Source: an uncultured Chloroflexia bacterium (GTDB lineage: Bacteria > Chloroflexota > Limnocylindria > QHBO01). From it: a DNA stretch of 64,000 bases. Within the stretch, counting starts at the first letter, position 1. Every line of letters starts with the position of its first letter. The translations under genes and the position numbers were made by a program. The notes beneath the pieces were generated by a model that saw nothing but the letters and a program-made list of their open reading frames with translations, had not been told where the DNA came from and did no database searches. Below, in pieces: positions 1,748-13,997 of the stretch. The DNA is taken from NCBI GenBank assembly GCA_963816215.1, contig CAWFKB010000001.1, forward strand, positions 54,298-118,297. Direction: 5' to 3'.

Positions 1748-2554
1748 TCAGGGAGCAGCGAGGGCGCTGACCAGCGCTTCCTCGGTCGCAACGGCGCCCA
1801 GGCCCAACCGATGCGCGGCGACGGCCGCGAACGGAGGCTCGAGGCCGGTCGAGCGAAGCGTCTCCCAGTTGGCGTTGCTGAACGCCTCGCCCGGAGGAGC
1901 GTCGAGGATCACCATCCCGTCGCGGAGGACCACGACCCGATCACACGCCCGGGCCACGAACCGCATGTCGTGACTGATGGTGATCACCGTCCGCCCCGCG
2001 GCCTTGGCCGTCCCGACGGCGCGGAGGACGCGGTCCACTCCCGTCCGATCCTGTCCGGTGGTGGGTTCGTCGAGGACCAGCACCGGCGTCCCCATGGACA
2101 GGACCGATGCGAGGGCCAGGAGCTTGCGCCGCGCCGTCCCGAGGTCATACGGGTTGGTCGTCGCCTCGTCGGTAAGACCCACCTGCTCCAGCGCCGTCGC
2201 GACCGCGCGCGCGAGCGCCTCCCCGCGCAGGCCAACATTCCGGGCGCCGAACTCCACCTCCCGACGTACGGTGCCGGAGAAGATCTGGCGGTCGGGATCC
2301 TGAAAGACGAGGCCCACCACCCGTGCCAGCTCTGCGACGCGCCGGCGCGCCGCGTCGGCGCCGTCCACCAGGACCCGGCCGGAGGTGGGTCGCAGCAGGC
2401 CGTTGAGGTGGCGCGCGAGGGTCGTCTTTCCTGATCCGTTCTGACCGATGAGCGCGACCGATTCACCCGGCTCGATGCGAAGCGTGACGTCGTCGAGGGC
2501 GCGCACTCCGTTGGGGTAGTCGTGCACGAGGTGGTCGACCGCCAGCTGGGTCAT
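1748..2554 (-). CDS. ecfA: ECF transporter ATPase
   Basis: Walker A GQNGSGKT, FQDPDRQIF Q-loop, LDEPT; 4-nt overlap with the upstream ATPase. Confidence 0.9.
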   Translation of the reverse strand: MTQLAVDHLVHDYPNGVRALDDVTLRIEPGESVALIGQNGSGKTTLARHLNGLLRPTSGRVLVDGADAARRRVAELARVVGLVFQDPDRQIFSGTVRREVEFGARNVGLRGEALARAVATALEQVGLTDEATTNPYDLGTARRKLLALASVLSMGTPVLVLDEPTTGQDRTGVDRVLRAVGTAKAAGRTVITISHDMRFVARACDRVVVLRDGMVILDAPPGEAFSNANWETLRSTGLEPPFAAVAAHRLGLGAVATEEALVSALAAP

Positions 2555-3369
2555 GCCGCGCCCGCCAGACGAGCCGGATCCACGCCGGCCGCCACGGCCA
2601 GCCCGCGCAGACGGGCATCGGTCGTCAAGTCGACCCCCAGCGACTCGAGGGTCGGATCGGTCAGGACGACGCTGGCCGGACCGTCGAGCCGAACCCGGCC
2701 ATGGTCCAGTGCCAGGACCCGGGTGCAGATGCCGGCCAGCAGGTCGGTGTTCTGCTCCGCGATGAGGATGGACGCTCCGCCGTCCGCCAACCGAGCGATG
2801 GCTTCGCCCACCATCCGAGTGCCCGCCGGATCGAGGTGAGCCGTCGGTTCGTCGAGCACCAGGTGGGTCGGGCGGAGGGCGAGCAGGCCGGCCAAGGCCA
2901 CCAGCTGCCGCTGGCCCCCCGACAGGTGCTCCGGGTCGCGTGCGCCCAGGGCTGCGAGGCCGACCTCCGAGAGCGCCGCCTCGGTGCGGGCCATCACGTC
3001 GCCGCGCGGGAGGCCCAGGTTCATCGGTCCGAAGGCGACCTCTTCGTACACCGTTGAGCACATACCGCTCAGCTGGGTGGTCGCGAAGGCGATACCGATC
3101 AGGCTCGGCAGCTCACCGGCCGCGAGGCTCGCCAGGCTCCGGCCGTTGACCGTCGCGGCGCCGTCAAGGTGACCGCCGATCGAGCGCGGGGCCAGGCCCG
3201 CCGCTACCAGGCAGACCGTGGTCTTGCCCGACTCGGTCGCGCCCGTCAGGCCCACCACGTCGCCCGGACCGAGGGACAGCGACAGCTCCACGATGGAAGG
3301 GATCGCGGCACCGGCATAGCGGTAGGTCACCGCGTCCAGCTCGAGCCGTCCCACCGATGCATCGCTCAC
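2551..3369 (-). CDS. ecfA: ECF transporter ATPase (second copy)
   Basis: GATESGKT, LSGGQRQ, LDEPT; GTG start inferred. Confidence 0.88.
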   Translation of the reverse strand: MSDASVGRLELDAVTYRYAGAAIPSIVELSLSLGPGDVVGLTGATESGKTTVCLVAAGLAPRSIGGHLDGAATVNGRSLASLAAGELPSLIGIAFATTQLSGMCSTVYEEVAFGPMNLGLPRGDVMARTEAALSEVGLAALGARDPEHLSGGQRQLVALAGLLALRPTHLVLDEPTAHLDPAGTRMVGEAIARLADGGASILIAEQNTDLLAGICTRVLALDHGRVRLDGPASVVLTDPTLESLGVDLTTDARLRGLAVAAGVDPARLAGAA

Positions 3370-4169
3370 GGCAGCCACCCGGCGAATCCGGCCACGATCA
3401 GGAGAGGGATGGTGGCCGCCATGAGCCAGCGAGCCACGCGCTCGACCGCGGTGTCGCGGGGCATCCACAGCAGCGAGCGCCGCCCCGGCCGGGAGAAGCC
3501 GCGCGCCTCGAGCGCCATGGCGCGCTCCTCGACTTCGCCAATCGACCCCAGCAGGACGGGCGCAACGAGCGGCAGCACGCCCCGGATCCGGCGCCACGCC
3601 GACCCCTCGGTGTCCAACCCGCGGGCGCGCTGGGCGGCGGCGATCTCGCCCGCTCGTTCGACGATCGCCGGTACGGTCCGGACCGAAGCGCTCACCACGA
3701 ACGCGAGGCGGGCGCCAACCCCGCGCCGCTCGAGGTCCACCACCAGCGACCCGATCGGTGTGGTCAGATAGAAAAGCGCCAGCGCGCCGGTGATGGCCAG
3801 CAGCCGGGCGAGGGTCTCGATCGCGAAGGCCAGGCCCTCGGCCGTGGCCGCAATCGGTCCGACCTGGAACAGGACCGTGGAGCCGTTCGGGAAGAAGAAC
3901 AGGTTGACCACCAGGACGCTGATGGCCAGTGGCAGCGCGAGCAGCAGGCCCACCCGCAGGAGCCGAGGCAGCACCCCGGCGATGGCCGCCGGCAGGAGCA
4001 CGGCCAGCACGACCAGGGACAGCGGACCAATGACGCCTCCCAGCAGCGTGGCGTCGACGGCGGTGACGGTCGCCGCCACCAGGCGGGTGAGCGGGTTGAG
4101 CCGGTGCCAGGCGGTGGGGGTGGGCGGGACCAGGAAGGCCGGGGTCGCCGGCTCGGCGGTGACGGTCAG
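3366..4169 (-). CDS. ecfT: ECF transporter T component
   Basis: HRLNPLTRL N-terminus, AQRARG and ALEARGF motifs; start probably CTG at 4169 overlapping the upstream stop. Confidence 0.88.
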   Translation of the reverse strand: MTVTAEPATPAFLVPPTPTAWHRLNPLTRLVAATVTAVDATLLGGVIGPLSLVVLAVLLPAAIAGVLPRLLRVGLLLALPLAISVLVVNLFFFPNGSTVLFQVGPIAATAEGLAFAIETLARLLAITGALALFYLTTPIGSLVVDLERRGVGARLAFVVSASVRTVPAIVERAGEIAAAQRARGLDTEGSAWRRIRGVLPLVAPVLLGSIGEVEERAMALEARGFSRPGRRSLLWMPRDTAVERVARWLMAATIPLLIVAGFAGWLP

Positions 4170-5330
4170 CCCGGGCTCTCCATCGGCGCCGGGGGAGCAA
4201 CCGCCGGTTCGGGAACGACCTCAGGCGCCTCCTGCTCCTCGATCAGCTGCTCGCCCTGCGGGAAGCGGGCCTTGAGGCGCACCGCCATGGCCACCACGAT
4301 CAGGTACACGATCACGAAGGTGGTCGCCTTGTCGATGGGGTCGCTGATAAGGCCCTGGCCGGTCGTCGCGGCATACAGGTCGGCGCCGCCCTGGCGCAGC
4401 GCGGCGACCAGGAAATCGGTCCCCGCCCCGGTGACGCCGCCGAACACGCCCGCCGCGATGGGCGCGCTGATGAGTGCACACACGATGCCTGTCGCGACAC
4501 CGACGACGACCGCATACGCGGCGGTGATGTCCCGCCGCCCGAAGAGCAGCGCGAACACGCCCAGCACGGCGGCCACCACCAGCAGGATGGCCACGTAGCC
4601 CAGGATCAGGAACAGTCTGGCTATCAGTGGACGGAAGCGGGCTGATGTCGACCCCGAAGATGAGCGTGTAGCCCACCGAGGCCAGCCACGCCAGACCGAT
4701 GATGATGACCGCCACCAGCACCCCGGCCACGACCAGCTGCCCGGTCGGGCGGCCCGGGCGCGGGCGCATGACCCCATACCGGCCAGCCAGACCGGCCGCG
4801 ATACCGATCACGGCGGCCACCACCGCGAAGGCGGCCGCGGGCGGGTACTGGAAGGGTGGCGGGATGACGTAGGCCCACAGGATGTTGGCCAACGCCCCGG
4901 TGGCGGCGCCGGCGATCGGTCCAGCCAGGACGCCCACCAGGATGGTGCCGATCGAGTCGAGGTAGATCGGGATCTTCAGGGCCGCGGCCACGGTCTGACC
5001 CAGCACGATGTTGATCGCGATCGCGATGGGCATGAGGGCCACGACGCGAAGCGTGAACTGGCGGGACAGCGAGTCCAGGCGACCGGTTTGGATCTTCTCC
5101 AGTGCGAAGGTCACCGCCGCCCCGACCAGCATGGCGACCGCCAGGATCAGCGCGAACGAGTTGGCGGCGGTCGGAATGGCTCCGGTGTTGGGGTCGACCT
5201 CGCCGTTCGAGAACTGGCCGAAGGCCACGATGCCCACCGCGGTGGCAATGACGAAGGCCACTGCCCCGGCGGCCACTCGCATCCACCCCGAGCCGCCGTC
5301 TGCGTGCTGCGCCTGCTCGCCGGTTGTCAT
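4166..5330 (-). CDS. ECF S component with extra transmembrane helices; frameshift near 4620-4635
   Basis: IPIYLDSIGTILVGVLAGP in ORF 4221..5330 continues as ISAPIAAGVFGGVTG...DPIDK in ORF 4166..4777. Confidence 0.8.
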
Positions 5331-5358
5331 CGGTCCGTCTCCTCCGTTCGCGATCTCG

Positions 5359-6324
5359 TCAGGCTACCGCTCGCGCCAGGCGGTCCAGGATCTCTTCATG
5401 CATCGCGCCGGCATCGATCGCGGTCGCGACGTTCACCATCGGTCGTGGGTCGTCATCGGACGGACGGACCGTGCCGGCCAGCGCGGGGTCGGCGGACGTG
5501 TCGCACGCCAGCCGCCGGTCGCGGCTGCCGGTGACCAGCTCGGGGCGCAGGACGGCGCCGACCAGGGTGACCGGATCGTGGAGATAGCAGCCGTCGATGC
5601 CATCGGCCTCCCGGTGGTAGCCCACGTAGAAGCGGAGGGCATCGCGGACGACGCCCGCCAGGTCGGTCTCCGGCAGGCGGTCCATGTCGTCCAGCGTGAA
5701 GACGACCTGCTGGGTCGCATCCAGCGGGAAGACCCGGTCCAGGGCGCCGCCGGACAGGCATATCTCGGCAGCCTCGGGGTCCACGCAGGCGTTCCACTCC
5801 CCGGTCTGGGTCGTGTTGCCCCGGACGTCCAGCGCGCCGCCCATCCAGATCACCTCGCGGGCGCCGCCGGCGAGGTCCACGCCGGAACCGGCCGCCGAGG
5901 CGAGGTTCGTCAGCGGCCCGGTGGCGAGGATCGTCATCTCGCCCGGGTGGCGGGTGAGATGGGCCTCGAAGTAGCGGGCCGCGGGGACGGCGGTGAAGTC
6001 GGTCGTCTCGAGGACGCGCTGCTCCCCCCGGAGCAGGGCATATCCCGTCCCGGTCGGACCGTGGGTTTCGGGCGCCGTCCGCAGGCGCCGGCTCAGCGGC
6101 CGGGCCGCACCGATCGACACCGGGACGTCGCCCCGCCCCACCATCTGGAGCAGGGTCCCGGTGTTCCGGGCGACGTGCTGGAGCTCGACGTTTCCCGCCA
6201 CGCAGGTCACGCCGCGGAGGTTGAGCTCGGGGGCAGTGGCTGCGATGAGGATGGCGACCATGTCGTCGATCCCGGTGTCGACGTCCAGGATCACCGGGCG
6301 GCGGCTAGCGCTCGGCTCGATCAT
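5359..6324 (-). CDS. Nucleoside hydrolase, IunH family
   Basis: DVDTGIDD, TGPLTNLA, EWN..VDPEAA, LHDP. Confidence 0.92.
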   Translation of the reverse strand: MIEPSASRRPVILDVDTGIDDMVAILIAATAPELNLRGVTCVAGNVELQHVARNTGTLLQMVGRGDVPVSIGAARPLSRRLRTAPETHGPTGTGYALLRGEQRVLETTDFTAVPAARYFEAHLTRHPGEMTILATGPLTNLASAAGSGVDLAGGAREVIWMGGALDVRGNTTQTGEWNACVDPEAAEICLSGGALDRVFPLDATQQVVFTLDDMDRLPETDLAGVVRDALRFYVGYHREADGIDGCYLHDPVTLVGAVLRPELVTGSRDRRLACDTSADPALAGTVRPSDDDPRPMVNVATAIDAGAMHEEILDRLARAVA

Positions 6325-6334
6325 CGGTCGCATC

Positions 6335-7237
6335 CTACGCTGGCCAGCCCCCGGCCTGGCCCACCTTCGAGGCCAGCGGCCGGCCCAGCACCGTGCTGAT
6401 GGATTCGGCGGCACGCAGTACACCGTCCAGGTCGACTCCGTGGCGCAGGCCCTCGCGGTCCAGCAGGTAAACCAGGTCCTCGGTGGCCAGGTTGCCCGCC
6501 GCGCCGGGCGCGTACGGGCATCCTCCGGTCCCGCCCGTGCTCGCGTCGAAGCACCGGATGCCCAGACCGATGGCGGTCGCCACGTTGGCGACCGCGGTCC
6601 CGCGCGTGTCGTGGAAGTGCATCGCCAGCCGATCCGGACCGATGCCGGCGCCCGCCAGGGCGCCGATCACGCGCCGTACGTCGGCCGGACCGGCGACCCC
6701 GATCGTGTCACCGATGCTCAGCTCGTCCACGCCCAGCGCGAGCAACCGTTCGGCGACGCTCACCACCGCATCGGTCGAAATCGGTCCCTCGTACGGGCAG
6801 CCGAAGGCGGTGGACAGGTAGCCGCGGATCCACCACCCGTTGGCCCGCCCGTGGGCGACGACCGGCGCGAAGGCGGCCAGCGACTCGTCGATGGACATCC
6901 CGATGTTGTGCTGGGTGAAGGTCTCCGAGGCCGCGGTGAAGACGCAGACCGCGTCGACGTGGGCGGCGATCGCCCGCTCCAGTCCCCGGGCATTGGGGAC
7001 GAGGACGGGATAGCGGACCCCCGGCCGCCGGTCGAGGCGGGCCATCAGGTCGTCGGCGTCGGCCAGCTGCGGAATGGCGGACGGGGCCACGAACGACGTG
7101 GCCTCGATCTCGCGCAGGCCGGCGTCGGCCAGCACGCCCAGGAACGCGAGCTTGTCCTCGGTCGAGATGGGCTGCGCCTCGTTCTGGAGCCCGTCTCGGG
7201 GTCCCACCTCGTAGATCCGCACGTCGACCTGGGCCAC
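6335..7237 (-). CDS. liuE: Hydroxymethylglutaryl-CoA lyase
   Basis: EVGPRDGLQNE, HFHDTRG, GGCPYAPGAAGNLATED. Confidence 0.95.
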   Translation of the reverse strand: MAQVDVRIYEVGPRDGLQNEAQPISTEDKLAFLGVLADAGLREIEATSFVAPSAIPQLADADDLMARLDRRPGVRYPVLVPNARGLERAIAAHVDAVCVFTAASETFTQHNIGMSIDESLAAFAPVVAHGRANGWWIRGYLSTAFGCPYEGPISTDAVVSVAERLLALGVDELSIGDTIGVAGPADVRRVIGALAGAGIGPDRLAMHFHDTRGTAVANVATAIGLGIRCFDASTGGTGGCPYAPGAAGNLATEDLVYLLDREGLRHGVDLDGVLRAAESISTVLGRPLASKVGQAGGWPA

Positions 7238-7284
7238 GACCGCCATTCTAGGTGCGCCGTTCCCTGCGCCCGATCACATCGGCT

Positions 7285-7317
7285 CTTCAAACGTTCTTAA
7301 GATCGGCCGCCCATAGT
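7285..7317 (+). promoter_or_regulatory. Direct repeat CTTCAA-N5-CTTAAG followed by -10-like CATAGT, upstream of the apbE operon
   Basis: AT-rich repeat with 11-bp period, resembling OmpR/PhoB-family sites; ATG lies 7 nt after CATAGT. Confidence 0.5.
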
Positions 7318-7324
7318 CGCCGCA

Positions 7325-7627
7325 ATGGGCAGTTCGCAGACTCCACAGCATCGGCCGCAAACCGCGCGAAGCAGGTCCCGCAAGCCTGAGAAGGTGGAGC
7401 ATCCGCATGTTTTGGCGCGTCGGTTGAAGCGCTGGGCGGTCGTGGCGGCTGCTGCCGCGTTTGGCCTGACCTGGGGCCTCGTCTCCCAGAACGCGGTGGG
7501 GGCCACCAACGCGGCGACGACCCAGCGGGCCACGATTCCGGGGTCCGAGTACTTCGGTTCGGCCGGCAGCCAGTCGGTCCCACTCATTGGTGGTGGCATA
7601 CCGGTCGTGCGCACCGGCGCCTCCTAG
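7325..7627 (+). CDS. Small single-TM protein ending in TGAS (candidate flavinylation substrate)
   Basis: Basic N-terminus, hydrophobic segment WAVVAAAAAFGLTWGLV, C-terminal VVRTGAS; 13 nt upstream of apbE. Confidence 0.65.
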   Translation: MGSSQTPQHRPQTARSRSRKPEKVEHPHVLARRLKRWAVVAAAAAFGLTWGLVSQNAVGATNAATTQRATIPGSEYFGSAGSQSVPLIGGGIPVVRTGAS

Positions 7628-7640
7628 GCGCGGAGCCCTC

Positions 7641-8573
7641 ATGACACTCGTCCAACCGGCGCCGGCCGGGATCTACCAGACGCCGATCGGCTTCGCCCGC
7701 CACACGTTCCCAACGATGGGATGCGCGTGCACCGTGATCCTCCCCGCAGCGCGGCTCGACGCTGCGGTCGAGGTCGAAGCCCTGTTCGCCGCATGGCACG
7801 AGGCGCTGTCGCGCTTCATCCCTGACAGCGAGCTCTCGCGCCTCAACGCGCAGCCAGGGACACCGGTACGGGTCTCTCCGCTGCTGTTCAGCGTCCTCGA
7901 GGAGGCCCTGCGGGCTGCGAATGCCACGAATGGGCTGTTCGATCCAACGCTCGAACCCACGATCCGCGAGCTCGGCTATGACCGAACGTTCGCGTCGCTC
8001 GCTCCCGACGGCGCTCCGGTTCAGGCGCATCCGTCCCTTGGCGCCTGGCGCCACGTAGTGCTCGATCGCTCCGTGCAGACGGTGGCGCTCCCGATCGGCG
8101 CGGGCATCGATCTGGGCGGGATTGCGAAGGGCATGGCGGTGGACGCGGGCGTGGCGCTTCTCGAATCTCGCGGCGTCGAGTCCGCGATGATCGAGGCCGG
8201 CGGAGATCTGGCCGTCCTGGGACTGCCACCCGAAGAGGACGCCTGGTGGGTGGCCGTCGACGGCTTGGTCGGGCGCGTTGCGATCACCAGCGGGGGATTG
8301 GCGACATCGGGAGTCGCCCGACGGTCGTGGCGACGGGGCGGACAGGTCTACCACCACCTCATCGACCCGCGCACCGGCGACTCGGCACGGTCGGACCTGT
8401 GGTCCGTGACCGCGGCGGCCGGAAGCTGCGCCCAGGCCGAGGTCGCGGCCAAGGTCGCCCTGATCAATGGTCGAGAGGCCGGCTCGGTATTCCTCGATGC
8501 GATCGGCATCTCCGCCCTTTTCGTCGAGCGTGACGGTGGGGCGTTGACCGTCGGGCTGTGGGAGGCCGCATGA
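7641..8573 (+). CDS. apbE: FAD:protein FMN transferase
   Basis: SRF..DSELSRLN, TNGLFDPT, IDLGGIAKG, AGGD, LATSG, HHLIDPRTG. Confidence 0.95.
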   Translation: MTLVQPAPAGIYQTPIGFARHTFPTMGCACTVILPAARLDAAVEVEALFAAWHEALSRFIPDSELSRLNAQPGTPVRVSPLLFSVLEEALRAANATNGLFDPTLEPTIRELGYDRTFASLAPDGAPVQAHPSLGAWRHVVLDRSVQTVALPIGAGIDLGGIAKGMAVDAGVALLESRGVESAMIEAGGDLAVLGLPPEEDAWWVAVDGLVGRVAITSGGLATSGVARRSWRRGGQVYHHLIDPRTGDSARSDLWSVTAAAGSCAQAEVAAKVALINGREAGSVFLDAIGISALFVERDGGALTVGLWEAA

Positions 8574-9574
8574 CCGGCGCCGTGACCTGGGACCTCGCGC
8601 GGGCTGCTGGACTGGTGGCCTACGTGTTCCTGACCGCATCGGTCTCCCTGGGCATCGCGCTCAGCCTGGGCTGGCGGACCGCGCGCTGGAATCGGTTCGT
8701 GACCAACGAGGTCCATCGGTTCGTCACCCTCCTGGCACTCCTCTTCCTGGTGCTCCACGGCATAGCCATCGTGGTCGACCCGTTCATCAAGATGAGCGTG
8801 AGCGACGTGCTCGTCCCGTTCACCACGACCTATCGGCCGCTGTGGGTTGGCCTGGGAATCCTGGGCGGATACCTCGTTGCCGCGGTGTACTTCTCCGAGC
8901 GGGTGCGCAGTCGGATCGGCTACGCGTGGTGGCGGCGGTTCCACGGCCTGGCATTCGCCGCGTTCCTCATGACTCTCCTGCACGGGATCGCGACGGGCAG
9001 CGACACCCGCGCGCCGTGGGCGTTGGCCCTGTACGGAGGCAGCGCACTGCTGGTCGCGGTCCTGCTCGGGCTGCGGCTCCTGCCCGCGCCGCCGGCACGT
9101 CACCGCCCGGTGATCGCGGTCATCGCTGCGTCGGTCCTGGTTGCGGTCGTGTCCTTCACGGTGTCCCAACCGCTCCAGCCAGGCTGGAGCGCCCGAGCGG
9201 GCGGCACCATTCCGGCAGGTGTGACTGCCGCCACGGCCTCGACCTCCGGCCTGGGCGTCACCGTGTCCAAGCCGCTCACGTTTGATGGGCAGATTGCTCG
9301 GTCCGAGAACACGATCCAGGTGACCGGCGAGACACAGGACGGAACGGCGGCGTTCCGAGTGCAGCTCACGGGCACCGAGGAAGGGGTCGGTGGGCAGATC
9401 GTCATGAACACCGGGACGGCCCAGGTCTGCGAAGGCCCGGTGACCCAGATCGGCGACACCACGATCGATGCCACCTGCTCGACAGCCGGTGGCACCTGGT
9501 CCCTCCGGATTGCGGTGCTGTCGGCGTCGGAGAGCCAGATCACCGGGACGCTCGAGGTCGCGCCCCGCTCCTAG
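8570..9574 (+). CDS. Ferric reductase/MsrQ-like heme b membrane protein with a C-terminal beta-rich domain
   Basis: Six TM segments; His pairs VHRF...VLHG and FHGL...LLHG; WRRFH and GSD motifs. Confidence 0.85.
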   Translation: MTGAVTWDLARAAGLVAYVFLTASVSLGIALSLGWRTARWNRFVTNEVHRFVTLLALLFLVLHGIAIVVDPFIKMSVSDVLVPFTTTYRPLWVGLGILGGYLVAAVYFSERVRSRIGYAWWRRFHGLAFAAFLMTLLHGIATGSDTRAPWALALYGGSALLVAVLLGLRLLPAPPARHRPVIAVIAASVLVAVVSFTVSQPLQPGWSARAGGTIPAGVTAATASTSGLGVTVSKPLTFDGQIARSENTIQVTGETQDGTAAFRVQLTGTEEGVGGQIVMNTGTAQVCEGPVTQIGDTTIDATCSTAGGTWSLRIAVLSASESQITGTLEVAPRS

Positions 9575-11569
9575 GTTTGGGCGACCTCGGCCAGGAGATC
9601 GCCGCGCTGCACCTGGTCACCGGCTCGCACGTGGATTGCGGTGACGGTCCCGGCCATGGGCGAGCTGACGGCGTGCTCCATCTTCATGGCCTCGATCACG
9701 ACGACCGGGTCGTGCGCCGCCACCGGGTCCCCCGCGTCGTGTCGCACCGCGACGACGCGCCCAGGCATGGGCGCGTGGAGCAGCGCGCTTCCGTCGACGT
9801 GGCTGGCATGGCGCACCGCTTCGTCCACGCTGGGCGGGCTGGCGATTCGAAACTCCAGGGACTGGCCGTCGACGTCGACGAATGCCGTGTCTCCGCGGCT
9901 CGCCACACGTCGATCCGAGGGTTTCGGACGCACGGAACGCTCTTCTGGACCATGGATCACCCGGATCGTGGGCCCGGCGTTCAACCGCCAGCCCCCTGAC
10001 CAGGGACTCGCTGTTCCCTCCGCGCCGACGAGCGCGGCTGCTGCCGCCTCCCACGCGTCGTCCGGAGGGGTGATAGGCCCGGGAAGGGGGAGGTGGGCGA
10101 CGGTGTCCGTGCGCATCTCGCCGTCGACGAAGGAGGGTTGCTCGAATAACCAGCGAAGGAAGTGGAGGTTGGTCCGCACGCCCAGGACGTGGGTGTCGGC
10201 GAGCGCGGCCCGCATCTCCTCTACCGCAGCCGTCCGGCTGGGTCCGTGAACGATGATCTTGGCCAGCAGCGGGTCGTATCGGTCGCTGACGAGGTCTCCT
10301 TCGCCGATTCCGGCGTCCACTCGAATCCCTTCCCCGTCCGGGAGGTGCAGCTCGACCACGCGGCCGGTGGCGGGGAGGAAGCCGGCCTCAGGATCCTCCG
10401 CGTACAGGCGGGCCTCGATGGCGTGGCCGTTCCATCGAACCGCCGCCTGCTCGACGCCGAGTGGCTCGCCGGCCGCGATCCGCAGCTGGTCGGCGACCAG
10501 GTCCCGCCCCGTCACCGCCTCGGTGACCGGGTGCTCCACCTGGAGGCGGGTGTTCATCTCGAGGAAGAAGAAGTCGCCGTCATCGGTCACCAGGAACTCC
10601 ACCGTTCCGGCTCCGACGTAGCCGGCGGCGGAGGCAACCCGCAGGGCGGCTTCGCCGAGCGACCGGCGCAGAGACCGATCCACCGATGGCGCAGGAGCCT
10701 CCTCGACGACTTTCTGCTGGCGCCGCTGGGTGCTGCAGTCCCGCTCACCCAGGTGCACCCCGTGGCCGTGGGCGTCGAACAGGACCTGGACCTCGACGTG
10801 GCGTGGGTTCTCGACGAGCCGTTCGAGGATGAGCCGATCGTCCCCGAACGCGGCCATGGCCTCTCGTCGCGAGGCGGCGAGCTCGTCGGGCAAGGCCTCC
10901 ACGGAACGAACCTGGCGCATGCCTTTGCCGCCGCCCCCGGCGGCGGGTTTGATGAGGAGCGGCAGACCGATGTCGACGGCCGCGGTCGCCAGGGTGGCTG
11001 TCGTCCTGGATCGGGTCGTCATAGCCGGCGACGACGGGGACCCCATGCGCGGCCGCCAGCCGGCGCGCGGCCGCCTTGTCACCCATGGCTTCGATGGCCG
11101 CCGGGGGCGGGCCCACCCAGATCAGTCCGCTGGCCGTCACTGCCGACGCGAAACCGGCGTTCTCCGCCAGGAACCCGTACCCCGGGTGAATCGCGTCCGC
11201 TCCAGCCCGGCGCGCGGCGTCCAGGATCGCGTCGCCGTCGAGGTAGGACGGGATCTGGAGGGCCAGGTCGCCGCCGGCGGGCGCAGGCTCGTCAGCCTCG
11301 TGGACGCGGATGACCCGTATGCCCAGCCGGTGTGCGGTGCGGGCCACGCGGACGGCGATCTCGCCGCGGTTGGCGATCAGGACCGCCCGGATGGGATGGG
11401 CCGGAGCGGCCGCCTCCGCGCCGACTGCGGAGAGCGATGCACGGGCAACGCGCATCCGCCCGCCGACCCGCGCGCCGGGGAGACGACCCGATGCGATCCA
11501 GCGCTGGACGGTCCGGACGGTGACGCCCAGCTCCTCGGCGACCTCGCGCGGGGTCAACTCGTCGCGCAC
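9571..11569 (-). CDS. liuD: 3-methylcrotonyl-CoA carboxylase alpha subunit (biotin carboxylase + carrier) with N-terminal Xis-like HTH; frameshift near 11000
   Basis: LIANRGEIA, HPGYGFLAEN, GGGGKGMR, EMNTRLQVEHPVTE, EAMKM biotinylation motif. Confidence 0.9.
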
Positions 11570-11605: not shown

Positions 11606-12403
11606 TCAGTCCGCGGTGCCTCTCCAGGCTGGGTCGCGCTTCTCGAGGAAGGCGGACAGGCCTTCCTGTCCTTCCTCGCTGGAACGCTGGCGGGCGATGG
11701 CCGCGACGGTCAGCGCCCGGGCCTGCGCGGGCGGCTGGCCGCGGAGCTTTCGGATGAGTGCCTTCGCCTCGCGCACCGCGGTCGGGCCGGCGGCCAGCAG
11801 CTCGCCGACGAGCTCGTTGATGCGCGCATCGAGCGCGACTTCGTCCGCGACGACCTCGTGGACGAGACCGATGTGGCGTGCCCGGTCCGCGCCGAAGCGG
11901 CTGCCGGGCGGGAAGAGGGCGCGTGCGTTCGACTCCCCGATCTTGGCCAGCGCATACGGACCGATGACCGCGGGCAGGATCCCCAGCCGCGTCTCGGTGA
12001 ACCCGAACGTGGCGTCGGCGGTGGCCACCACGACGTCCGACACGGCGCACAGGCCCATCCCGCCCCCCAGGGCCGCGCCCTGGACCCGCGCGATGACCGG
12101 GACCGGACAGGTGTCGATGGTCTCGAGCATGACCGCCAGTCGCGTCGCGTCGGCCTCGTTGGCCGCCTCGTCGAGCGCCGCCGCCGATCGCATCCAGGCC
12201 ACGTCGGCACCGGCGCAGAACGTTGGCCCGGCCCCCGCCAGCACGACGGCGCGCAGCGCATCCGCAGGCTCCGCGGCGAAAGCGGCAAAGGCATCGGTCA
12301 GGGCGGAAACGAGCTCGGGATTGAAGGCGTTCCGGACGTCGGGCCGGTCCAGGGTGACGCGCGCCACCACCCCGTCGCGTTCGACGCGGAGGGGATCGGT
12401 CAT
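11606..12403 (-). CDS. liuC: Enoyl-CoA hydratase, likely methylglutaconyl-CoA hydratase
   Basis: RPDVRNAFN, FCAGAD, ALGGGMGL, ETRLGILPA; liu context. Confidence 0.88.
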   Translation of the reverse strand: MTDPLRVERDGVVARVTLDRPDVRNAFNPELVSALTDAFAAFAAEPADALRAVVLAGAGPTFCAGADVAWMRSAAALDEAANEADATRLAVMLETIDTCPVPVIARVQGAALGGGMGLCAVSDVVVATADATFGFTETRLGILPAVIGPYALAKIGESNARALFPPGSRFGADRARHIGLVHEVVADEVALDARINELVGELLAAGPTAVREAKALIRKLRGQPPAQARALTVAAIARQRSSEEGQEGLSAFLEKRDPAWRGTAD

Positions 12404-13206
12404 CCGTGCCCGCGGTGGATTGGCTCGGCGACGGCCCGCACTCCGGTCAACAACGGATCGGTCAGCCAGCGTGCTTCGACGCCCTCGGGCGCCTCCGGCA
12501 GCGCGCCACCCCCACCGACCAGGCCCAGCACCAGCGCCCATCCCTGTCCGATGTCGGCCTCGACCAGGTATGCCTCGCGAACGCCCGGCCAGCCCGCCAC
12601 CGTGACGGCGGCGGCCTGTTCCAGCGCTGCTGCCTCCGGCCCGGGCAGCCGCACCCGGATCGAGGTGCCACCGCCCTCGGTCAGCAGTGGTTCATCGGTC
12701 CCGGGCAGGCGTCCGGCCGCGAGATCGGTCAGCTCATCGGGCTCGAATCGGTAGGGAATCGGTCCGGCGGGATCGAGGATGGCCGGCAGGCCGGCCGCGG
12801 CCAGGTTGGAAAGGGCAATCCGGGCCGGGACCGCGAGGGACGTCGACCCGAGCGGCGACCAGGCGGCCAGCGCCGCATGCGACCCGAACACGATGCTCAC
12901 CGGGTTGCCGTCCACACCGCGGCCCAGCAGGACTCCGACCTCGACCTCTGCCTCGTCGTCCACGACCTGGCCCACCGCCTCGCGAGCCTGCTCCTCGGCG
13001 CCCGGCGGGACAGGGAGAAGCAGCGTGCCGGTGCCCAGGGCCCGATAGAACGCGTGGAGGGGCGCCAATTCGTCGGTCCCCTCCGCGTCGCGGGCGGCCA
13101 ACGCCGCCTCGTACAGCATCGCGGAGCTCTCTTCGAGGCTCCCGCTCGGAACATCGCGGGCGTGCGAGCCGGGAATCGGCCGCTCGTCGGATGGCGTGTC
13201 GGACAT
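12400..13206 (-). CDS. SseB family protein
   Basis: FYRAL..GTLLLP, F.SHAALAAW, ILDPAGP, C-terminal PGVREAYL; 4-nt overlap with liuC. Confidence 0.6.
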   Translation of the reverse strand: MSDTPSDERPIPGSHARDVPSGSLEESSAMLYEAALAARDAEGTDELAPLHAFYRALGTGTLLLPVPPGAEEQAREAVGQVVDDEAEVEVGVLLGRGVDGNPVSIVFGSHAALAAWSPLGSTSLAVPARIALSNLAAAGLPAILDPAGPIPYRFEPDELTDLAAGRLPGTDEPLLTEGGGTSIRVRLPGPEAAALEQAAAVTVAGWPGVREAYLVEADIGQGWALVLGLVGGGGALPEAPEGVEARWLTDPLLTGVRAVAEPIHRGHG

Positions 13207-13253
13207 CGCGGCCAGCCTACCGAATCGTCCGCGGCGACGGGTAGGATCGGAGC

Positions 13254-13997
13254 ATGGCCGACGGCATTGACCACCTCGTCCTGGCCGTCGCCGACCTCGA
13301 GCCGCAGCCGACGCGCTGGAGCGCGACGTTGGCCTGATCTGCACCGGAGGCGGGCGACACGAGGGACTGGGCACCGCCAACCGGATCGCGTTTCTGGCCG
13401 ATGGAAGCTACGTCGAGCTGATGGCTGTCGAGGACCCGGCGGTTGCCTGTCCTGGCCCATCGGTCGCGAGCCACTCTCCGTGCCCTGGACGCGGGCAGCG
13501 GGTTGGCAGCCGTCGCGCTGAATGACGACGATCTGCCGACCACGTGTCCGCTCTCCGAGCGGCGGGAGCTCGCATTGGCCTGCCCAACGTCGGGGCTGCG
13601 GCGGCGTCCCGACGGTGAGGTCGTCCGGTGGTGGACGGCTGTTGCCGAACCGATGGCGCGCCGACGCGCTTCCGTTCCTGATCCGCCACGACCGGCGGGC
13701 GCGAGTGGGGCCTGGCCGCGGTGGCCGCCCGGGCGTCCATCGCGCATCCGGCCGGTCGGACCGGTTCACCTGCCCCAGCTCGACCTGCCCGTGCCCGATC
13801 GGCAGGGCTCGCCGCGCTCCACCTCCGTGAACTGGGCATGGAGTTCACCGCCAGGTGACGGGCAGTGGCTGCCATCGTGCACCCTCGTTCGACTCGTGCC
13901 GGACGCTCCGAATACGCCACCCACGGTCGCCCTCCGGGTCAATGGTTCGCCGCGGACCGTCAAGGCCTTCCGCATGACCTGGGAGTTGAGTCGGTAG
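13254..13997 (+). pseudogene. VOC/glyoxalase-like protein with multiple frameshifts
   Basis: IDHLVLAVADL, GGRHEGLGTANRI...SYVELM, VRWWT and LPFLIRH are spread over different frames. Confidence 0.75.

Follow-up and report, generated by a model that had tools for sequence, protein, structure and literature searches.

Within a 64,000-nucleotide (nt) stretch of the genome of an uncultured Chloroflexia bacterium (contig CAWFKB010000001.1; the whole stretch is called the window here), three plus-strand genes lying within 7325-9574 form a coupled 2.3-kb cassette between liuD and liuE. They encode, in order, a small membrane protein whose tail ends in serine, a leaderless member of the ApbE family and a di-haem membrane cytochrome. 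We read the small protein as a domain-less, tail-type acceptor of flavin mononucleotide (FMN) that is also a subunit of an MsrQ-like electron conduit, and assign this reading a probability of about 0.6. It builds on computed results: the reality of the small gene, the conservation of its terminal serine, its adjacency to apbE, the four haem ligands of the cytochrome and a confident model of the complex. The features of the cassette, with the evidence for each, are as follows (aa, amino acids; ORF, open reading frame; AF2, AlphaFold2; pLDDT, its per-residue confidence score; FAD, flavin adenine dinucleotide; A4, an 85-row alignment of the small protein).

7325-7627, plus strand: gene for a small single-pass membrane protein, candidate tail-type FMN acceptor (100 aa; ORF, homologues, codon differences)
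7433-7510, plus strand: predicted transmembrane helix (about W37-S54) and juxtamembrane motif Q55-N62, "H/N-x-V-G-x-T" (A4 columns, complex model)
7535-7558, plus strand: "IPGSEYFG" patch, residues 71-78, with the aromatic pair 76-77 (A4 columns, complex model)
7601-7624, plus strand: C-terminal motif P93-V-V-R-T-G-A-S100, S100 being the proposed FMN site (counts anchored at the C-terminus)
7641-8573, plus strand: leaderless ApbE, FAD:protein FMN transferase family (310 aa; PF02424)
8570-9574, plus strand: six-helix di-haem b membrane protein, Ferric_reduct / MsrQ-like (334 aa; PF01794, invariant His)
9275-9565, plus strand: predicted C-terminal extracytoplasmic eight-stranded beta-barrel of the cytochrome, residues about 236-332 (AF2, pLDDT 81.8)

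The small gene and its terminal serine

An earlier note on this DNA had described a 100-aa protein with the string ARRLKR, a single hydrophobic helix and the ending RTGAS, all of which are present at 7325-7627. The N-terminal third is basic (10 Lys/Arg in residues 1-36), a hydrophobic stretch extends from about W37 to S54, and the 46-residue tail that follows carries 2 Arg and 1 Glu and ends in P-V-V-R-T-G-A-S. A word-indexed search found six relatives of similar length; the relatives share 77-90% identity with the window protein, with distant ones in addition. A profile search of 1.84 billion representatives returned 15 proteins at E ≤ 0.001, 13 of which were retrieved (P0009, a 2736-residue repeat protein, is not among them). 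A second repeat protein, P0018, was dropped as unrelated.

Compared with the copy in a genome of the same genus (G008), the small ORF differs synonymously at 41 codons and non-synonymously at 16, the differing nucleotides being spread 13/9/48 over the three codon positions, and its in-frame GC content at third positions is 0.79. Judged by these homologues and by the synonymous excess, which uphold the gene status claimed for it in the earlier note, the small ORF is a real, conserved gene under purifying selection.

The protein matches no Pfam family and gives only chance-level rows in NCBIfam, no Pfam or NCBIfam family was found for any of the 85 family members scanned, and a protein atlas search returned only clusters named "hypothetical protein". 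When the small protein was modelled alone by AF2 with its 85 relatives, a single helix (residues 27-55, pLDDT ~90) was the only structure predicted, with pLDDT values of 53-64 elsewhere. "Domain-less" is therefore a fair label, and the disordered-looking tail noted earlier agrees with this model.

Several A4 columns are well conserved along the chain: K35 (74 of 85 rows), F46 (72), L52 (74) and H/N56 (67) in and beside the helix, G59 (60) and T/S61 (56) in the juxtamembrane motif, F/Y76 (72) and F77 (68) in the aromatic pair, and P93 (77) and S/T97 (78) near the end. Across the family the tails that follow the helix are 39-101 residues long and consist largely of Ser (20%), Gly (13%), Ala (11%), Thr (11%), Pro (8%) and Gln (8%), with a mean of 2-3 basic and 2-4 acidic residues per tail. 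Ser100 is the best-conserved column of all (84 of 85 rows). A start could be assigned in 74 locus sequences, and eight of these are absent from A4, namely the near-duplicates L059, L075, L077, L084, L093 and L102 and two exceptions to the serine ending, L103 and L104.

The terminal serine was then counted in a wider sample. We aligned the ApbE of the window with four relatives (alignment A3) and scanned one genome per species. Of 599 matching stretches, 246 were seen to encode a relative, and we retained the 80 best loci. By their record titles these loci come mostly from Chloroflexota (Ktedonobacteria, Limnocylindria), and also from Actinomycetota (Thermoleophilia, Gaiellales), with some metagenome-assembled genomes labelled Bacillota and one locus each from Dormiibacterota, Acidobacteria and Thermomicrobia. 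Among the carriers are the cultured organisms Ktedonobacter sp. SOSP1-85, Dictyobacter kobayashii, Thermogemmatispora tikiterensis and T. carboxidivorans.

Every stop-to-stop ORF in the 80 loci was searched with a small-protein profile. At E ≤ 0.01 a same-strand ORF just upstream of apbE was matched in 64 loci, and 63 of these ORFs end in Ser; the exception, in L038, is frame-shifted, and its other frame ends in ...GSHTS. Relaxing the threshold to E ≤ 0.5 raised the matches to 70 loci, with 69 ending in Ser. The loci without a profile match were inspected by eye, and five of them (L090, L100, L101, L105 and L106) contain a membrane-helix ORF ending in Ser at the matching place. In total, a Ser-ended ORF stands directly before apbE in 75 of the 80 loci. 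The serine ending thus occurs in 75 of 77 upstream tails, as against 323 of 2659 (12%) control stop-to-stop ORFs of at least 100 aa from the same loci, an excess that is beyond chance.

Counted back from the C-terminus, the 77 tails (76 of them distinct) have the following composition.

Position 0: Ser in 75 of 77
Position -1: V 31, G 17, T 16, A 7 and S 6 of 77, a small residue or Val in all 77
Position -2: S 19, G 17, H 16, R 13 and N 7 of 77
Position -3: Ser/Thr in 72 of 77
Position -4: G 26, R 19 and Q 15 of 77
Position -6: D in 2 of 77; Val94 in the window
Position -7: Pro in 62 of 77

The motif shared by the family thus reads P-x-x-x-[ST]-x-[small or Val]-S-COOH, of which the T-G-A-S of the window is one version, itself conforming to [ST]-G-A-[ST]. 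The earlier note had proposed a test for a conserved terminal [ST]G[AG][ST] in ORFs upstream of such apbE genes. Of this pattern, Ser at position 0 (75/77) and Ser/Thr at -3 (72/77) hold, whereas Gly at -2 (17/77) and Ala at -1 (7/77) do not hold, and TGAS as such gives way, as the conserved feature, to the terminal serine and its context. In the small protein and the cytochrome taken together, this serine is the only near-invariant hydroxyl residue.

The stop codon that follows the terminal serine is universal across the family. A frameshift or read-through fusion in which the small protein would serve as a membrane anchor for ApbE was rejected, given that the two genes lie in different frames with variable spacing before that universal stop; L038 is the only frame-shifted copy. 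In that locus (2940-4460 and 3203-3508) the N-terminal half of the small protein is in frame with ApbE and the tail (...PPVSGSHTS) lies in another frame, reflecting either an assembly frameshift or a broken copy. In L103 (3250-3483) and L104 (1919-2140), the sole exceptions to terminal Ser among the 77 tails, the tail reads ...ASRSSR, one Arg past a Ser pair, and the ApbE proteins of both loci fall outside the main clade of the ApbE tree. The Thermoleophilia-type loci L096, L100, L101 and L103-L106 carry, upstream of the small ORF and in its orientation, another short membrane ORF with a poly-acidic or His/Asp-rich ending (e.g. ...DDHEDDDEDDD); this second ORF is not present in the window.

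The transferase, the cytochrome and their predicted arrangement

Gene 2 matches PF02424 over the whole profile (positions 1-266 of 266) with 200.9 bits, against a cut-off of 25.6, and E 3.5e-59. Its closest solved relative is the V. cholerae protein 6nxi (E 4.2e-26). The GGIAKG and HxxDPxTG stretches are in register with 6nxi, read DLGGIAKG and Y-H-H-L-I-D-P-R-T-G in the window, and are invariant in A3. His257 is described as the general base of V. cholerae ApbE in a review (PMC12052999), and the His of the H-x-x-D-P-x-T-G stretch in the window corresponds to it only by way of an inferred numbering offset. On these matches, gene 2 is predicted to encode an FAD:protein FMN transferase that transfers FMN to a Ser or Thr of a protein.

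A hydrophobic N-terminus is absent both from the form that starts at ATG 7641 and from the longest in-frame form (TTG 7587), in keeping with the signal-less ApbE of the earlier note. There is no room for a signal peptide upstream of ApbE in at least 77 of the 80 loci. Extending ApbE upstream in frame as far as possible brings in a hydrophobic 12-mer in only three of the 80, and these three extensions overlap the small ORF in another frame, so that the leaderless state is a trait of the clade. The window ApbE is accordingly predicted, from its sequence, to be cytoplasmic.

The linkage between apbE and the small gene is close. In the window the ApbE start lies 14 nt past the small-ORF stop, and in 67 of 70 loci that stop falls between -48 and +92 nt from the position that aligns with residue 1 of the window ApbE. 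A FastTree phylogeny was built from 101 ApbE rows, made up of the 80 loci, a further 20 from relatives' genomes and the window itself. On it, a preceding tail-type ORF, treated as a label, requires 8 changes, compared with a shuffled mean of 18.5 (0 of 500 shuffles were as low). One group of 83 rows contains 78 of the 81 labelled rows, although the deep split of the tree is weakly supported, and the other ApbE copies in the relatives' genomes mostly lack a tail-type ORF. A search of 18 genomes from the window's genus detected ApbE in two (G000 and G008) and the small protein in the same two, both genes being jointly missing from all 16 others. The genus tallies include G015, and the wider tallies G021, both flagged as unpublished and contributing count rows only.

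The source genome, which is 92% complete, encodes one ApbE. The earlier note had found no gene for an FMN_bind domain, and we likewise obtained no match to this family in the three cassette proteins or, at E ≤ 1, in the genome, whose incompleteness means that absence is not proven. DUF2271 gave no match in the same genome and NqrB/RnfD a sub-threshold match only; DUF3570 also gave no match, which is uninformative because the controls were without a match as well. Given one ApbE, no FMN_bind or DUF2271 match and precedents that fit (see below), we therefore take the gene 1 product to be both the probable acceptor and a probable cytochrome subunit, its terminal serine being the candidate FMN site.

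Gene 3, whose ATG overlaps the ApbE stop as ATGA, exceeds the PF01794 (Ferric_reduct) cut-off of 28 by a small margin (31.4 bits, residues 13-135). H49, H63, H125 and H138 are invariant in 66 sequences; they stand on the second and fourth helices with spacings of 13 and 12. This is the two-haem pattern of the Ferric_reduct family, and the four residues are predicted to be haem ligands. Across the same 66 sequences the cytochrome lacks any invariant Ser or Thr. The pairing of ApbE with a Ferric_reduct di-haem protein is kept in 68 of the 80 loci and, with the PF01794 match and the overlapping genes, bears out the MsrQ-like cytochrome named in the earlier note.

The last 100 residues of the cytochrome were modelled by AF2 as an eight-stranded up-and-down barrel (pLDDT 81.8). 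Foldseek found no match to this model in the PDB at E ≤ 0.001. The barrel was also compared by a wider structural search (VIA), with the following matches (rmsd, root-mean-square deviation).

7x80_A, PloI4: Z 12.3, rmsd 2.3 Å, 104 residues (best match)
7dvi_A, AbnU: Z 10.4, rmsd 3.0 Å, 105 residues
5k21_A, pyocyanin demethylase: Z 10.0, rmsd 2.5 Å, 97 residues
2jgs_A, avidin permutant: Z 9.0, rmsd 2.5 Å, 88 residues

Among the matches listed are Diels-Alderase, pyocyanin-demethylase and avidin-like barrels, which does not thereby exclude families that are not listed. Such matches are small barrels that hold polycyclic ligands, a lead towards a flavin pocket in the modelled domain and not evidence of one. 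Neither the small protein nor the C-terminal domain of the cytochrome has a sequence match to FMN_bind (PF04205). The barrel is present in only 32 of 65 relatives compared and is therefore inessential to the module. No link between the barrel and the tail motif was seen, the spectra of the last two residues being alike in loci with (32) and without (33) the barrel.

The complex was modelled from the cytochrome (alignment A5), small-protein residues 26-100 (alignment A4), two haems and FMN. An ipSAE of 0.85 was obtained (runs 0.86, 0.85 and 0.84), compared with 0.01 for the best of three controls; in calibration, 58 of 80 solved complexes and 2 of 110 mismatched pairs scored that high, a yardstick that holds only roughly here, with our own alignments used and ligands included. 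Contact agreement between runs was at least 76% and the partner pLDDT at least 65. The model favours binding of the small protein to the cytochrome, without showing binding. In it, the helix of the small protein (27-59) lies against cytochrome residues 4-20 and 39-59 (helices A and B), with K35 level with residues 51-55 in the inner half and residue 53 level with residues 11-12 at the outer end. Residues 56-61 touch the conserved cytochrome loop 144-150, next to the haem ligand H138, and residues 66-77 contact the barrel (250-288).

The contact beside H138 bears on a different placement of the flavin, in which it would be attached instead, or also, to the juxtamembrane Thr61 within a "V-G-A-T" or "T-G-V-T" motif near the outer haem. 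Many Ktedonobacteria copies do read T-G-V-T, which fits [ST]-G-[AV]-[ST], and G59 and T/S61 are kept in 60 and 56 of 85 rows. The latter figure is far below the 84 of 85 rows of the terminal serine, however; several members (e.g. L043 and P0019) have lost or displaced the residue, and a place in the predicted interface explains its conservation equally well. We regard flavinylation at Thr61 as quite unlikely.

The same region of the window protein resembles a signal-peptidase I site, with RRLKR as n-region, the helix as h-region and V-G-A followed by Thr. Cleavage after V-G-A would release a soluble product of about 39 residues, flavinylated or not, which might serve as a diffusible flavopeptide shuttle. 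Val and Ile, which signal peptidase I is not known to accept at -1, are the residues found there in many relatives (VGVT, IGIT). Near-invariant residues within the helix (F46 and L52) and its modelled placement against the cytochrome with low error likewise speak for a retained anchor, as does the lack of a conserved twin-arginine, and cleavage seems very improbable. Export by the Tat pathway was rejected on the last of these grounds, the RRLKR of the window being replaced in relatives by GRVKR, TRAKI or TLKR.

The charges of the two membrane proteins suggest how the complex is oriented. Cytochrome loops 34-50, 109-124 and 169-180 contain 12 Arg, whereas the N-terminus and loops 70-90 and 143-150 contain 4 Lys/Arg; the positive-inside rule therefore puts both the N-terminus and the C-terminal domain outside. 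The small protein has 10 Lys/Arg before its helix and 2 after it. Its N-terminus is predicted to lie inside and its tail outside, on the side of the barrel, and the complex model agrees with this charge distribution.

A proposed flavin on the tail: mechanism, alternatives and precedents

We propose that the cassette could encode a minimal transmembrane electron conduit. The six-helix protein would hold two b haems on its four invariant His residues, one near each face of the membrane, and the small protein, crossing the membrane once with its N-terminus inside, would pack its helix on helices A and B. Its tail, probably unstructured, nearly uncharged and rich in Ser, Gly, Ala and Thr, would present the invariant final serine, to whose hydroxyl the leaderless ApbE may transfer the FMN part of FAD. 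The tethered flavin might then exchange electrons with the outer haem and pass them to a partner outside the cell. Quinol or a cytoplasmic reductase, which the cassette does not encode, are candidate donors, and Fe(III), quinones and O2 are candidate acceptors. We infer that FMN is attached at S100 and that this happens in the cytoplasm before the tail is translocated; which way electrons flow, and between which donor and acceptor, is likewise inference.

The following points weigh against a flavinylated tail. The tails conserve neither the canonical G-A core nor the canonical Asp six residues before the end (D at -6 in 2 of 77). The tails of L103 and L104 end in ...SRSSR, and L072, L086 and L097, which were inspected by eye, have no such upstream ORF. 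Choosing ORFs by eye (L090, L100, L101, L105, L106 and the shifted frame of L038) can itself bias the count towards Ser, and related genomes are non-independent samples. The last 23 residues of the small protein (78-100) are outside the confident interface, so that the model defines no flavin site on the cytochrome. ApbE is predicted to be inside and its putative target serine outside.

Some of these points would suit a small protein that is only a structural or assembly subunit, with a terminal serine kept for a contact, as a processing signal or for another modification. ApbE would then have another substrate, or would act in flavin trafficking or FAD hydrolysis, and a metal-dependent FAD pyrophosphatase is on record in the ApbE family (PMC4767422). 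The unconserved G-A core of the ApbE motif, the predicted location of ApbE and tail on opposite sides of the membrane, and a confident interface made up of the helix and residues 66-77 without the C-terminus are all compatible with such a role. It would leave unexplained, however, why ApbE and the small protein occur together in 2 of 2 genomes and are jointly missing from 16 of 16 in the genus, why the ApbE start abuts the small-ORF stop in 67 of 70 loci, and why the only near-invariant hydroxyl in either partner is the terminal serine; moreover, in the source genome, which is 92% complete, we detected no acceptor family of another known kind. We consider a purely structural role unlikely, and prefer to regard the small protein as the FMN acceptor.

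If ApbE is inside and the serine outside, the two must meet before the tail is translocated. After release from the ribosome, the last residue of the protein would be free in the cytoplasm, where it could be flavinylated and then translocated with the uncharged tail. This fuller scheme, in which the leaderless ApbE loads the last residue in the cytoplasm, the flavin is exported as covalent cargo and a tail of 40-100 residues works as a swinging arm, is offered tentatively and is rather doubtful as a whole. Were it true, extracytoplasmic flavin would be exported on a tether and no FAD exporter would be needed, and the arm would move single electrons on FMN from the outer haem to distant acceptors.

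Published work supplies fitting precedents. The system nearest to the cassette among those described is that of Meheust et al. 2021 (PMC8238504), Actinobacteria MsrQ-like clusters in which a PF01794 two-haem protein stands beside apbE, and MsrQ-like proteins have been proposed to carry electrons across the membrane to a covalent extracytosolic flavin (PMC8238504, PMC11334425). The adjacency of apbE to a PF01794 gene for a six-helix, two-haem protein is shared by our cassette. In contrast to those clusters, which have an FMN_bind acceptor, the cassette has neither FMN_bind nor an NAD-binding domain, and its candidate acceptor is a tail without a fold; its ApbE is leaderless and the anchor of its small protein looks uncleaved. 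The survey in PMC8238504 admitted only ApbE proteins bearing a signal peptide or FMN_bind genes. Some MsrQ-like proteins end in a C-terminal FMN_bind domain (PMC11334425, Huang et al. 2024), whereas the present cytochrome ends in a predicted beta-barrel.

MsrQ, NOX and STEAP are relatives of the MsrQ-like haem proteins (PMC8238504). The cytochrome has in common with them the Ferric_reduct fold and two His pairs on two helices for two stacked haems. It differs in its extra helix at the seventh position and its outer beta-barrel, and the cassette includes no cytoplasmic dehydrogenase domain and no gene for an MsrP partner.

For the acceptor itself, a natural parallel is provided by FMN_red proteins (PF03358), which are flavinylated on an unstructured C-terminal extension, as confirmed by co-expression and Ala mutants (PMC11334425). 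There too the acceptor Ser/Thr is on a disordered C-terminal stretch and not in an FMN_bind fold. The tail of an FMN_red protein, however, returns the flavin to a folded pocket of its own, whereas here the carrier has no fold and the serine is its very last residue, so that any flavin pocket would have to be on the cytochrome. The synthetic "flavin-tag" (Tong et al. 2021, via PMC12052999) is similarly a short terminal peptide ending in the modified Ser/Thr; being engineered, it keeps D-x-x-[ST]-G-A-[ST], and the natural tails keep only P(-7), [ST](-3), small/Val (-1) and Ser(0).

The same review describes the minimal ApbE motif as seven residues ending at the modified Ser/Thr, reports that flavin tags work best at a protein terminus, and records a minor effect of changing the motif Asp to Ala and a lowered, though not abolished, flavinylation when Ala is changed to Val (PMC12052999). 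Cytosolic ApbEs exist as well, among them that of Klebsiella pneumoniae, which like the present one has no signal peptide and which serves a soluble fumarate reductase (PMC12052999). The substrate of the K. pneumoniae enzyme is a cytoplasmic FMN_bind protein, whereas here the substrate end is predicted to be outside the membrane once inserted.

We found no description of a fold-less tail acceptor beside a leaderless ApbE in the literature, a search that does not extend to subscription journals or to the supplements of PMC8238504. The cassette is real and widespread, and is apparently a variant, not described so far, of a system already known; comparative support for it is strong and the cytochrome partnership is confidently predicted. 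ApbE substrates so far have been folded domains or extensions of folded flavoproteins, and a fold-less tether would, if the reading is true, constitute a new substrate class. It would also explain the "orphan" leaderless apbE genes of Chloroflexota, Thermoleophilia and other soil and freshwater lineages, and would mean that a large published survey, by requiring signal peptides, overlooked a widespread system. With the enzyme predicted inside and the acceptor outside, one may ask if a tail that crosses the membrane can take an already bound cofactor along with it. Finally, the natural tails offer a set of short, diverse C-terminal tags, with matched transferases, for protein labelling.

Insertion site and neighbouring genes

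The ORFs, the Pfam matches and comparison with genus-mates agree with the earlier description of three tightly linked plus-strand genes between liuD and liuE. The start given there, 7285, lies 40 nt 5' of the small-ORF ATG and is corrected here to 7325. Three further features adjoin the cassette.

7247-7324, no strand: spacer of 78 nt, presumed promoter and left edge of the cassette (the sequence and the uninterrupted liuD-liuE junctions of genus-mates)
6335-7246, minus strand: HMGL-like (HMG-CoA-lyase-like) gene (Pfam scan)
From 9571, minus strand: biotin-carboxylase gene (Pfam scan)

The spacer separates the divergent liuE start (7246, minus strand) from the small-ORF ATG. In all seven cassette-free genus-mates examined (L139 and L141-L146), the liuD stop and the liuE start are only 12-18 nt apart, and we therefore call the cassette inserted. 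In G000 and G008 the 2.3-kb cassette stands between the two genes, on the strand opposite to both. The hexamer CTAGGT occurs at both edges (7249-7254 and 9572-9577 in the window) and could be either a short target duplication or a chance match. At the right edge, CCTAGG contains the stop codons of both convergent genes.

The liuD-like biotin-carboxylase gene (9571-11569, minus strand) is split over two frames, with HTH_17 and Biotin_carb_N in one ORF (10745-11569) and the ATP-grasp, Biotin_carb_C and biotinyl domains in the other (9571-11082). The break, near 11040-11090, resembles a frameshift or an error of assembly. The fusion of a DNA-binding helix-turn-helix to the N-terminus of a liuD-like protein is unusual.

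On the other side, 1-5 kb upstream of the cassette, the minus strand at 2551-6423 encodes an ECF-type transporter, made up of an ABC ATPase, CbiQ/EcfT and an S component that matches ECF_trnsprt weakly, after which comes an inosine-uridine nucleoside hydrolase. At 12403-13380, also on the minus strand and past the enoyl-CoA hydratase gene, lies the gene for a protein of 326 residues whose N-terminal domain is of the SseB type (PF07179, E 7.3e-10).

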